From a virus (lineage: Duplodnaviria; Caudoviricetes), in IMG/VR virus record IMGVR_UViG_3300010344_000600, positions 18,039 to 82,038 of that record: 64,000 nucleotides of DNA, one strand, 5' to 3'. Under the pieces are notes generated by a model. The model did no database searches and had not been told where the DNA came from. It saw only the letters and a list, made by a program, of their open reading frames with translations. Within the stretch, counting starts at the first letter, position 1. Each line of letters opens with the position of its first letter. Positions 17,963-22,189 of the stretch are shown in pieces. Position numbers and translations under genes: made by a program.

Positions 17963-18381
17963 GGCGTTTCCCCAGTCACAATCGGCCCAGTCGCCACATT
18001 GATGCAATGCAGAAGTCTCCGGGTGCGGGCATTAAGCAGGCTTTGCAGCACTTGGCGCTCACCGGGCAGCAAATAGGTCCAGGACTGCTGCTCGTCGTAA
18101 GCATCGAAGAGCTTCTTCTCCAACGAGGAAATGCGCTCGATCAGCGCGCGCCGGTCACTGTCCTCGGTACGCTCGGCTTTGGGTTGGTCCGAGAACGCGG
18201 CAATGCGCTGGCCGAGAACCTCGGAAAGTTGGTGCATCAGTTCGGCTTGTTCGATCAGGCGATGGCGCTCCGGGCCGGGAAGAACCTCAAAAGGCGCGGT
18301 CCACAAGAAATCGGCCAACTTGCACAAGCGCTCGTCGAGTTCGCTCTTTTCTTTCACTACACGTTCTTGATAGGCTTCCAT
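17959..18381 (-). CDS. Phage hypothetical protein (crAss001_48-like N-terminus)
   Basis: YQERVVKEKSELDERLCKL..F...RLIEQAELM..LSEVLGQRIAAF pattern. Confidence 0.7.
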   Translation of the reverse strand: MEAYQERVVKEKSELDERLCKLADFLWTAPFEVLPGPERHRLIEQAELMHQLSEVLGQRIAAFSDQPKAERTEDSDRRALIERISSLEKKLFDAYDEQQSWTYLLPGERQVLQSLLNARTRRLLHCINVATGPIVTGETP

Positions 18382-19444: not shown

Positions 19445-19524
19445 TCAGTTATCGTAGCCTCCTTGTCGATCGTTTTGTTTCGCAGTCCATTGCGGCCATA
19501 CGCGCCGAGCGTCTATCCGCTCTG
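19445..19524 (-). pseudogene. 3' remnant of the Gp37/Gp68 (DUF5131) gene beyond the IS insertion
   Basis: After removing the IS and one TSD copy the frame continues DGFGF-PERIDARRVWPQWTAKQNDRQGGYDN-TGA. Confidence 0.6.
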
Positions 19525-19598
19525 GAAATCCGGGCTATCCGGATTTGATGGTGGAAACGACCGATGAGAGATAAATCATCTTTGGTGGAATCTTCCAT

Positions 19599-20966
19599 TC
19601 AAACCTCCGGGAAAGCGGTGAATCTGGCATGACAGATTTTGCAGATATGAAAGACCATATCCGGTCCGGAAACATCTTCACCTGCATACGGGACAACATG
19701 GTCAACAGTGAAAATCTCAGAGTCTGGATAAAGCCCGGTGCAGTTGGAGCACCGAGTCAGCGCAGCCTCAGAAGCGGCCCGGCGCGCTCTCAGCGTTCGC
19801 TTGTTGGTCGGGCTATTGGCGAACAGCAAGCGAGAACGAATCACTTCAAAGCTGTACCCACGGCCAGCGCGGTTAATCATCTTGGCTATCCCGTTCATGC
19901 TTTCCGTGTAGGCGTTGGTTGTCGGGAAGTCGAAATAGTTGAGGATTTCCGTTCTCCAGTTCTGCATGGCTCGCGTCAGTTCGTGGAACTCCTTGGTCAT
20001 CGACGCCGGGATAGTGGCTGCAAAGGCGTCAAATGCGGCGATAGCCTTGGCTTTCGGAAGGTCGTAGATTCCGAACAGAGCCTCTTTGATGTTGTACGCA
20101 GCATCAATCTCCGGCTCGTTGTTCCGCCATCCGCTCAAGTTGAAGCGCTGTTTATCGCTCAGGTTGTGCTCTCTGGTCAGCAACTGGTGCTTGCTCTGCT
20201 TCCACGAGAGGCGCATCTTCTTATCTTTCCCCTTCTGGACGCGGATACGAACCTTGTCGATTGCCGAGTTAGCCATCTTGACGACATGGAACTTATCAAT
20301 CACCACAGCGGCATTCGGAAGCATTTCTCTCGAAACGTCGCGGTAAGCCTGCCACATGTCGATAGTCACAACGCGCACTTTGGACCGGTCTCGGAACTGG
20401 CTAAACCACCGGGAAACCATAGGCTTGTTCCTGCCAGACAGCATGTCAACAACACGCCGATTCTCAACGTCAGTGATGATTGCCCGGAATATCTTGTTCA
20501 AATGGTTCTCGTCCAGACCAAGCCACTCTGGAAGGTATGGGCGGTATTCGCCATCGGTAACGGCAATGTAGTCGGCAGCGATGTTCCGAATGGTCTTTTC
20601 ATCGCAGCCGAGATGCTCGGAGAGGTGCTGGAAGGTGTCACGAAGGCATTGCTGCTCGATGTAGCGAAGACATCGCTCAGTCATGCGCCTGACTGCATCA
20701 ACGCCACTCAACGGCTGCGGGAACGTCCCGCCGCACGCCCTGCACTTGTAGCGCTGGACCTTAGCAACGATTCGCGTAGGAGTTCCACGAATAGGGCTAT
20801 CGAGGATAGTCACAGACCTTGGCCCATGCTTGTAAAGTTCTCCAACGACGCCACAGAGAAGGCAGAACTCAGGCTGCTTGGCGTATTCGGCACTGATGAT
20901 TGTCTGGTCTTGCTGCTCTTCTATGCCGAGAACGGCCCAGTCTTTGAGTTGAAGGATGTCAGTCAT
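19599..20966 (-). CDS. ISL3 family DDE transposase with a C-terminal Cys/His extension
   Basis: N-terminal zinc finger (CLLCG, CRACG), LGLDENHL, VVTIDMWQAY, VIDKFHVVK, TNAYTESMNG..K.I.R.GRGY. Confidence 0.95.
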   Translation of the reverse strand: MTDILQLKDWAVLGIEEQQDQTIISAEYAKQPEFCLLCGVVGELYKHGPRSVTILDSPIRGTPTRIVAKVQRYKCRACGGTFPQPLSGVDAVRRMTERCLRYIEQQCLRDTFQHLSEHLGCDEKTIRNIAADYIAVTDGEYRPYLPEWLGLDENHLNKIFRAIITDVENRRVVDMLSGRNKPMVSRWFSQFRDRSKVRVVTIDMWQAYRDVSREMLPNAAVVIDKFHVVKMANSAIDKVRIRVQKGKDKKMRLSWKQSKHQLLTREHNLSDKQRFNLSGWRNNEPEIDAAYNIKEALFGIYDLPKAKAIAAFDAFAATIPASMTKEFHELTRAMQNWRTEILNYFDFPTTNAYTESMNGIAKMINRAGRGYSFEVIRSRLLFANSPTNKRTLRARRAASEAALTRCSNCTGLYPDSEIFTVDHVVPYAGEDVSGPDMVFHICKICHARFTAFPEV

Positions 20967-21722
20967 TTAGGCGGCCATATCAATTTTTGCCAAATGGCAG
21001 AAGATACCGCATTGCACCTCGGGTTCCGATTGATAATCGCCAGTCCCCGGCTGAAGCTCGTCAAGGAATGCGCGCTTCTCGTCAATTCGAATAATGCGGA
21101 CGCCAAGCCGCCGCGACTCGGTAGCCATGCGCTGAAACTGAGCAGGGAAGTCCTGCCGAATCTTGTTCCAGTAGCCCATTCCTTGGGCTTTGCAGCATCC
21201 AATGCAGTTGTTATGGTGGTATCCAAGACCGTACATGACCGGCAGCGCGATTCCTGCATCCTTGACGATGGACAGGCAATCCTTGTGCTCCAAGCCACGT
21301 TCCATCAGCGGAGATTCGCAGGCGATGTTGTTGGCGGCGAGAAAGTCGTCCCATCTATCGGCCTCTTCGGCGCAATATCCAAAGACGTGAAAGTCGGTCG
21401 GAAGCTCGAATCTCTCCCTAACCTGCTTCTTGAGCAGCCGAGTGCAGGGAGCGCCACGCACGCCGGAAATGTACGACTCCTTTCGAAAGACTTCGTAGAT
21501 AGAGCCGTCGTACTTATCGTTGATGAGGTTGGCAATCGGCACGCCAAACCACTTCTCGCAGTCGGCTGCGAAGCGGTCGTTATCCGGATGCTCTTCACGA
21601 ACAATACAGCGAGCTACAACCAACGGAAGACGGCCAGCATTAGCCACAATCGCCAGTTTCGTTGCAACCGCACTAGCCGCCCCACAGCTAAACCAGCAAA
21701 TTATTCTGGAAGGTTCAATCAT
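20967..21722 (-). CDS. PAPS-reductase-like (PP-loop) phage-type protein, IS passenger
   Basis: WFSCGAASAVA PP-loop, HPDNDRF, CTRLLKK, GYHHNNCIGCCK, CGIFC; lies wholly inside the IRs. Confidence 0.85.
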   Translation of the reverse strand: MIEPSRIICWFSCGAASAVATKLAIVANAGRLPLVVARCIVREEHPDNDRFAADCEKWFGVPIANLINDKYDGSIYEVFRKESYISGVRGAPCTRLLKKQVRERFELPTDFHVFGYCAEEADRWDDFLAANNIACESPLMERGLEHKDCLSIVKDAGIALPVMYGLGYHHNNCIGCCKAQGMGYWNKIRQDFPAQFQRMATESRRLGVRIIRIDEKRAFLDELQPGTGDYQSEPEVQCGIFCHLAKIDMAA

Positions 21723-21795
21723 GATATTCCACCAGTTATTCCGGATTTACAGAGTATCATATCTACAGTCTTTCCACCACTTATTCCGGATAGCC

Positions 21796-22189
21796 GAAAT
21801 CCGAAGCCGTCGACATCTTCTGCCAACCAGTCAAAGAACGAGCGCATCCTCGCCGGCCGCTTGGTCAGCACCTGATAGGTATGGCGCGTGGTAATAGACA
21901 TGACCGCGAAGACGTCGGCAATGAATTCAAACGGAACATCCTCATGAAACAGGTCGGACATTGAATTGACGAAAATTCGGCGCGGACGTGCCCAGCGCAG
22001 TGGCTGGTCAAGGCGGTCAGGGTGGCAGGCCACGTCAGTGAACGCGCGCCCAGCGTAGGCCGGAACACGCACCATGCGAACCCAGTTGCGCTCGGCATAA
22101 CAATGCTTGCACCCGGAGCTGACCTTGGTGCACCCGGTCGTCGGATTCCAAGTGGCATGTGTCCAGACAATTCCTGTTTTGGCGCTCAT
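21796..22189 (-). pseudogene. 5' part of the Gp37/Gp68 (DUF5131, radical-SAM-like) gene, interrupted by the IS
   Basis: TWNPTTGCTKVSSGCKHCYA, RRIFVNSMSDLFH, YQVLTKRP; the frame runs into the IS end at 21795. Confidence 0.85.

Follow-up and report, generated by a model that had tools for sequence, protein, structure and literature searches.

We describe an intact, recently inserted member of the ISL3 family of insertion sequences (ISs), 2,263 bp long and comprising two genes on the minus strand, at positions 19533-21795 of a 64,000-nucleotide stretch of viral DNA (hereafter the window; positions 18,039 to 82,038 of IMG/VR record IMGVR_UViG_3300010344_000600). We think it likely that the element belongs to an ISL3 lineage that dwells in phages and has a slot for cargo built into its structure, with the cargo being dispensable for transposition. 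The cargo in the window, referred to here as the passenger, is a protein of the PptA family. A preliminary description of the window, made from the sequence alone, had proposed an ISL3 element carrying a gene that normally lives in phage genomes, a contrast that needs correction in that the record itself comes from a phage, being an 82-kb virus genome rated complete by CheckV. Phage genomes are generally regarded as poor in insertion sequences, which are costly to them, and ISL3 elements that carry passenger genes are known, for example ISPpu12 of Pseudomonas putida plasmid pWW0.

Boundaries of the element and its target

The element is flanked by a perfect 8-bp target-site duplication (TSD), GAAATCCG, read directly at 19525..19532 on the left and at 21796..21803 on the right. 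Just inside the duplication lie inverted repeats (IRs) of about 26 nt, both assigned to the minus strand from the sequence and by script: GGCTATCCGGATTTGATGGTGGAAAC at the transposase-distal end (19533..19558; the right repeat, IRR, in the orientation of the transposase) and GGCTATCCGGAATAAGTGGTGGAAAG, the reverse complement of 21770-21795, at the passenger-proximal end (21770..21795; the left repeat, IRL). The script recovered the same TSD and IR pair independently. The repeats are identical at 21 of their first 25 positions and both start GGCTATCCGGA, as they do in the relatives described below. A perfect 8-bp duplication on both flanks and 26-nt terminal repeats are what is expected of the ISL3 family, in which TSDs are 8 bp and the terminal repeats run to about 15-39 bp and start GG. 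The element also has the organization of a transporter IS, in that the passenger lies between IRL and the transposase and the unit of passenger and transposase, with IRL upstream, recurs in other flanking contexts.

Repeats that agree at 15 or more of 25 positions and are flanked by a perfect 8-mer duplication should, by our estimate, turn up by chance about 0.004 times in the search of one locus. Because this expectation is so low, and because excision of the element restores both the frame and the homology of a DUF5131 gene, a chance origin of the ends can be excluded. The interrupted gene (DUF5131, Gp37/Gp68-like) is on the minus strand and the IS entered it at codon 129. Its N-terminal part, codons 1-129, is found at 21804..22189 (Pfam DUF5131, 1.2e-44, profile positions 1-122 of 243) and is 67-73% identical to viral relatives. 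When the 2,263 bp and one copy of the TSD are removed in silico the DUF5131 frame becomes continuous, and the next 28 residues still align to DUF5131 relatives (WP..W..GYDN, common to loci L210 and L214) before a stop is reached. This IS-distal part, 28 more codons and the TGA stop (19445-19447), occupies 19445..19532 on the minus strand as placed by the excision and alignment. In-silico excision and protein homology were used because the closest DUF5131 relatives are only 73% identical and a search of IMG/VR for a natural empty site, with the exact 31-mer across the excised junction, gave 0 matches.

Even after excision the DUF5131 open reading frame (ORF) is short, 157 aa compared with 326-349 aa in relatives, with the C-terminal ~170 aa of normal DUF5131 proteins absent from the window, and it ends TGAtATG, directly abutting the next small gene. 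The C-terminal half was therefore lost by a deletion separate from the IS. Since the IS sits in a gene remnant, the insertion site is one that would be tolerable in a phage genome. The flanks of the element consist of this remnant and small ORFs that match no family.

The same evidence bears on a reading in which the ends have been mis-assigned, PptA being a resident phage gene beside which an ordinary one-gene ISL3 element was inserted. It is true that PptA genes are typical of phages and that the record in question is one, but both genes lie within the IRs and the perfect TSD, no IR-like end is found between the abutting genes, excision of the whole 2,263 bp is what restores the DUF5131 frame and homology, and the same junction recurs at other sites with IRL upstream of the passenger. 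We find this reading scarcely credible.

No further copy of the exact element was found in the phage record itself, among PLSDB plasmids, in IMG/VR (searched with the exact IR pattern) or among GenBank phages, where the sole match was a 69% match to the transposase of phage Bcep22. The preliminary description had considered that other copies might lack the passenger; there being no other exact copy, the nearest that can be said is that the closest transposase relatives do lack PptA and have other cargo in its place.

The transposase and its passenger

The transposase (455 aa; 19599..20966, minus strand) has a zinc ribbon, a helix-turn-helix and a DDE domain. It matches Pfam DDE_Tnp_ISL3 (PF01610) at 2.1e-59 over profile positions 1-239 of 240, as well as Zn_ribbon_ISL3 and HTH_Tnp_ISL3, and scores 286 bits against NCBIfam transpos_ISL3 (NF033550), for which the cut-off is 180. 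Residues D166, D224, E355 and K362, invariant across five relatives, are candidate catalytic residues. Taken with the IRs, the TSD and the excision, the Pfam and NCBIfam matches bear out the proposal of an ISL3 transporter with both ends, an 8-bp TSD and an enclosed passenger. The closest transposases in bacterial genomes, 57% identical over residues 1-449, occur in two Massilia genomes and one Pseudomonadota metagenome-assembled genome (MAG), and the DNA of both Massilia loci is also present in IMG/VR as proviruses (L006 = L132 and L008 = L133).

The last part of the transposase, residues about 387-455 (19602-19808, minus strand), is an HNH-like zinc tail as judged by comparison with PF01844. 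The tail in the window scores 19.2 bits, under the cut-off of 21.4, and has the DH and CxxCH elements with no obvious Asn, while that of a Massilia relative (L008:5099-5386) scores 29.1 bits, above the cut-off, and has the full DH...N...CxxCN motif; the backbone of the type found in L002 has lost the DH. From these motifs the C-terminal zinc module is predicted to be derived from an HNH nuclease. Fusion of an HNH domain to a DDE transposase is unusual.

The passenger (251 aa; 21722..20967, minus strand) is a PP-loop protein with the phosphoadenosine phosphosulfate (PAPS) reductase fold and belongs to the PptA family, as judged from PHROG, the PDB and an AlphaFold (AF2) model. It matches PHROG 424, annotated 'phosphoadenosine phosphosulfate reductase', at 1.4e-39. 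Searched alone it matches PptA (PDB 21fy chain C) at 1.1e-70 with about 50% identity over its full length (residues 5-243 against 26-262), and a profile of 48 family members matches the same chain at 1.9e-99. The PDB entry also contains full-length Escherichia coli cysteine desulfurase IscS, identified by a search with the product of K-12 iscS. The AF2 model has a predicted local distance difference test (pLDDT) score of 89.8, and its closest folds are adenosine phosphosulfate (APS) and PAPS reductases, the [4Fe-4S] protein LarE and TtuA, at a template modeling score of about 0.5 and 13-16% identity. Ten residues are invariant in the 48 sequences (S12, C13, G14, S17, C93, N172, C173, C176, K178 and C238 in passenger numbering), and the passenger has the motif set of the family, consisting of the SCGxxS loop, C93, NNC-x2-C and a C-terminal QCG, the last of which would appear to resemble the ECG(L/I)H tail of sulfonucleotide reductases.

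The passenger matches no Pfam family at E up to 10, PAPS_reduct (PF01507) included, and no NCBIfam family at E up to 0.1. It was accordingly rejected as a true PAPS/APS reductase (CysH) on the strength of the PF01507 result, the resemblance being one of fold only. The class first proposed for the passenger thus stands in so far as it falls within the phage 'PAPS reductase' family of PHROG 424, and gives way to a PptA-like protein in so far as an actual PAPS reductase was implied. The family is very large, with at least 7,400 relatives of ~250 aa, most of which lie in phage early regions beside genes for YqaJ exonuclease, SSB and integrase with no transposase nearby. This was so for 59 of the 83 PptA genes examined.

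We read the passenger as a stand-alone phage enzyme of sulfur transfer that may draw on host IscS, the use of IscS being read from the co-structure. That PptA acts on nucleic acid, by thio-modification, is our leading guess. PAPS-reductase-domain proteins known to insert sulfur into the DNA backbone (DNA phosphorothioation) are DndC, SspD and BrxP; their sulfur donors are DndA/SspA or IscS, and they require an NTPase partner, DndD, SspC or BrxC (PMC12914056). The anti-Dnd phage protein JSS1_004 proved to be an unrelated kinase.

A lineage with a fixed cargo slot

When IMG/VR was searched with five aligned transposases, 72 viral loci were obtained; elements were called in them by script wherever a perfect 8-bp duplication enclosed repeats that matched at 15 or more of 25 positions. 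Half of the loci (36/72) were resolved as TSD-bounded elements of 1.8-2.9 kb, and in all 36 the distance from the left IR down to the transposase ATG is 382-1574 nt. The left end of these elements consists of the IR, ~22 nt that include a box resembling TATAAT/TATACT, a repeat of the IR core and the ATG of the first cargo gene, which falls 61-80 nt from the left tip in the 36 TSD-bounded relatives; the order of IR, -10-like box, repeat and ATG is found in most of them. The corresponding subterminal copy of the IR core in the window, TCCGGAATAACTGGTGGAAT (21726..21745, minus strand, read from the sequence), stops 3 nt short of the passenger ATG, and the GGTGGAA within it is probably the ribosome-binding site of the passenger.

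The leader is succeeded by one or more cargo genes, and the transposase gene closes the element. While this framework is constant and the transposases of near relatives all begin MTDIL, the cargo varies in nearly every element. The annotated cargo of relatives includes DpdA (PF23859), a TGT/DpdA-like protein (phrog_887), two N6/N4 DNA methyltransferases, NADAR, Bro-N, DUF551 and a second PptA, 45% identical to the first (L156). One of the Massilia relatives, L008, illustrates the arrangement: the element, with the same kind of IR and a perfect TSD (ATTATTTC), lies between ORFs judged from their translations to be portal-like and terminase-like, and its slot holds a different gene, of 165 aa, where the window has PptA.

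The target duplications of the 36 elements are AT-rich, and several end TTTC in the orientation of the transposase (CGGATTTC in the window, ATTATTTC, CAAATTTC, GAGATTTC and ATACTTTC), which hints at a target preference.

Gene junction and expression

In the window the TAA of the passenger (20969-20967) directly abuts the ATG of the transposase (20966-20964) in the same frame. Across the lineage the last cargo ORF abuts the transposase ATG exactly in 8 distinct elements; in about 5 there is an overlap of 4 nt, and in most of the remainder it ends within 21 nt of it (offsets +3 to +21). Recurrence of the stop-ATG abutment fits the translational coupling that had been suggested for the window. 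Readthrough to give a fusion of passenger and transposase, for which the shared frame had been taken as a hint, was rejected since the relative frame varies in the lineage (offsets 0, -4 and +3 to +21 nt) and the same-frame arrangement is thus not conserved.

From this organization a scheme of expression can be suggested. Cargo and transposase would be transcribed together from a promoter at the left end, and a start at the left-end box, between two repeats to which transposase may bind, would make autoregulation possible. The passenger would be translated from the GGTGGAA of the subterminal repeat and the transposase by termination and reinitiation at the TAA/ATG junction, because no Shine-Dalgarno sequence precedes its ATG.

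A second box was observed close to the transposase gene. Many elements (L006, L008, L131, L153, L155, L158 and others) have a conserved GAYAAT between 15 and 10 nt ahead of the transposase ATG, ending ~6 nt before it, a spacing that would suit the -10 of a leaderless transposase mRNA. The window has GATATG at this position, within the last codons of the passenger.

Exchange and selection of the passenger

The closest relatives of the passenger, 94-96% identical in amino acid sequence, are found on the metagenome contigs L002, L003 and L009. Each is again followed by the TAA/ATG junction and an ISL3 transposase and preceded by IRL and the subterminal repeat, and the units occur in at least two different flanking contexts, both phage-like, so that recurrence of the arrangement at other sites (L002, L003/L009) was observed. 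Their type of transposase, however, is only 44-47% identical to that of the window. In a sliding-window comparison 90-100% nucleotide identity is confined to the passenger ORF, with 50-60% in the leader and the transposase. The passenger shared with the other backbone has 91% nucleotide identity, a synonymous divergence (dS) of 0.37-0.40 and a ratio of nonsynonymous to synonymous divergence (dN/dS) of 0.07-0.08 against its IS-borne relatives, whereas the adjoining transposase gives in the same comparison a dS of 1.72, which is saturated, and a dN of 0.47. This gap at silent sites is too large for a shared history, and therefore either the cassette moved between backbones or it was captured twice from one source with an identical junction. 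The PptA cargo is under strong purifying selection, and its cassette has been exchanged between divergent backbones. The contrast of a young cassette (dS 0.4) with an old, saturated backbone is direct evidence of cargo exchange within an IS family.

Further PptA cassettes, about 76-80% identical in amino acid sequence, include that of L012, which lies behind a third type of IRL. In a quick maximum likelihood tree with Shimodaira-Hasegawa-like approximate likelihood ratio test (SH-aLRT) support, the IS-linked PptA genes fall in two places among non-IS phage genes, the main IS-linked clade of five having support of only 84%; the two placements imply at least two captures. Three copies (L011, L012 and L089) are decayed, with the PptA cassette intact and the transposase cut to its first 29-93 codons. 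In one of these (L089:4001-5100) the left IR has been replaced by an overlapping phage gene. The decayed copies look like a route from IS cargo to fixed phage gene. On another contig (L010:1553-1581) the TAA of PptA is followed directly by the ATG of an ORF other than the transposase (MNVTKEMIG...) before the contig ends, which suggests stacked cassettes that reuse the same junction. The sister elements of L002 (2743-4005) and L009 (1994-3760) adjoin genes for a DarB-like polyvalent protein and a 588-aa phage DNA methyltransferase, and ISs of this type seem to land in anti-restriction neighborhoods.

Role of the cargo

Three views of the passenger have to be weighed against these data. The first, raised in the preliminary description, is that it is a functional partner of the transposase, the modification of DNA or RNA by PptA being needed for transposition or the choice of target and the coupled junction fixing the proportion of the two proteins. 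The TAA/ATG abutment, the strong purifying selection on an IS-borne passenger, the captures of PptA on at least two occasions and the unusual, putatively HNH-derived tail of the transposase could all be taken in this sense. Yet the elements with the nearest transposases (57% identical, in Massilia prophages) have their slot filled by unrelated cargo, in some thirty distinct elements the place of PptA is taken by methylases, DpdA, NADAR, Bro-N or unknown genes, the same PptA cassette is paired with transposases only 45% identical to each other, and most PptA genes (the 59 of 83 noted above) lie in phage early regions with no transposase. Because the cargo is interchangeable, a part for it in transposition is contradicted, and we regard this view as highly improbable.

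The second view is that the passenger is a neutral hitchhiker, the slot taking up any nearby phage gene with no benefit to phage or IS. It would account for cargo that is extremely varied and mostly unannotated and is compatible with the decayed copies (L011, L012, L089), where the passenger is still present beside a truncated transposase. In those copies, however, it is the cargo and not the transposase that survives; moreover, the dN/dS of 0.07-0.08 across a dS of 0.4 indicates a protein kept functional, the annotated cargo is concentrated in DNA modification and counter-defence functions, and the spread of the cassette between backbones suggests selection for the cassette itself. Neutral carriage is therefore in our judgment unlikely, though less so than partnership in transposition.

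The third view, which with the cassette slot and dispensable cargo we favor, is that the cargo would benefit the phage that carries the element and so make up for what the IS costs its phage. In the case of PptA this would be done by thio-modifying nucleic acid with sulfur derived from IscS, thereby allowing evasion of host restriction or defence; in sister elements the methylases, DpdA and NADAR would counter restriction or defence by their own known chemistries. In its most general form, which we put forward tentatively and with more doubt than belief, the lineage is a phage-specialized shuttle for cassettes of counter-defence and DNA modification genes, single genes being swapped between backbones in a slot framed by the leader and the invariant start of the transposase; the shuttle couples its transposase to the cargo and spreads anti-restriction functions horizontally among unrelated phages, with PptA a stand-alone enzyme of immune evasion supplied with sulfur by IscS.

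Several observations weigh against the favored account. A scan of the element with the consensus sigma-70 promoter found no site, and the -10-like box in the window copy, GATACT, is weaker than the boxes of relatives; as the assignment of the promoter is based on the -10-like box conserved in relatives, and as the consensus scan found none in the window copy, the promoter is the weakest step of the mechanism. About two thirds of the cargo in the lineage is without annotation, and it is the annotated minority that speaks for anti-defence cargo. The related loci came from a viral collection, and their residence in phages is in part an effect of sampling, although the three matches in bacterial genomes are two IMG/VR proviruses and one MAG contig. 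The element encodes the passenger and transposase only, with no NTPase of the DndD/SspC/BrxC type such as DNA phosphorothioation systems need. A literature search yielded no paper with an experiment on the element or on PptA, and indeed no paper on PptA, so that what PptA acts on and how it would help the phage are deductions. Lastly, the PptA-carrying elements L002 and L009 have no TSD, possibly owing to chimeric metagenome assembly or recombination between copies, and they were not used as evidence of fresh transposition.

Comparison with known systems

Elements of the ISPpu12 type and that of the window are alike in their ISL3 DDE transposase, terminal IRs, 8-bp TSD and genes within the ends that are unrelated to transposition. 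The lineage of the window differs in that its cargo occupies one set position, after a conserved left-end leader and before the transposase ATG, often with probable translational coupling, in that the cargo changes from one element to the next and passes between backbones, in its location in phages and in the HNH-derived tail predicted for its transposase.

A nearer parallel is found in Burkholderia phage Bcep22 (NC_005262), where two 'putative insertion sequence boundary' features are annotated around the transposase gp32 and the hypothetical proteins gp33 and gp34. This IS (L144) belongs to the same lineage and resembles that of the window in its transposase (45% identical over residues 1-449), the type of its IRs and an 8-bp TSD, and its two cargo ORFs lie upstream of the transposase as in the slot layout of the window. 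It differs in that the cargo is two small hypothetical proteins rather than PptA, and its annotation marks the boundaries only. A literature search on the Bcep22 IS and on ISL3 elements in phages found nothing on point, and one on the lineage found no paper that describes a fixed slot, coupling to the transposase, life in phages, cassette exchange or PptA as cargo. Passenger-carrying ISL3 elements and the Bcep22 annotation are thus already known; it is the lineage that is under-described, and within it the element of the window is an ordinary member.

The passenger shares with the solved PptA chain (21fy_C) full-length homology and the SCGxxS, NNC-x2-C and C-terminal Q/E-C-G/S motifs, and differs from it in having ~20 fewer N-terminal residues and in being borne by an IS rather than resident as a phage early gene. 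DndC, SspD and BrxP resemble PptA in the PP-loop/PAPS-reductase fold, in conserved cysteines and in a cysteine desulfurase donor, which for PptA is suggested by the co-structure. They differ in working with partners, and besides the NTPase neither DndE nor SspB has a counterpart on the element; nor does the passenger significantly match the DndC, SspD or BrxP families in Pfam or NCBIfam.

Integron cassettes and mobile insertion cassettes (MICs) are like the lineage in having interchangeable single-gene cargo at a fixed spot beside a recombinase or transposase gene and a promoter borne by the element. In contrast to these, the lineage has neither attC/attI sites nor an integrase, and the whole unit moves by DDE transposition. 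Our guess is that cargo is exchanged by homologous or illegitimate recombination between co-resident elements.

Implications

PptA represents an abundant phage family that is routinely mislabeled as an 'auxiliary metabolic gene' of sulfate assimilation. The element places it among cargo for DNA modification and counter-defence, which weighs against the metabolic reading in virome surveys. If the account given here is correct, an IS lineage whose anti-restriction cargo can be swapped would account for the movement of such genes from one phage to another, unrelated one, and inspection of the slot, about two thirds of whose contents have no annotation, would provide a simple rule for finding new counter-defence genes.

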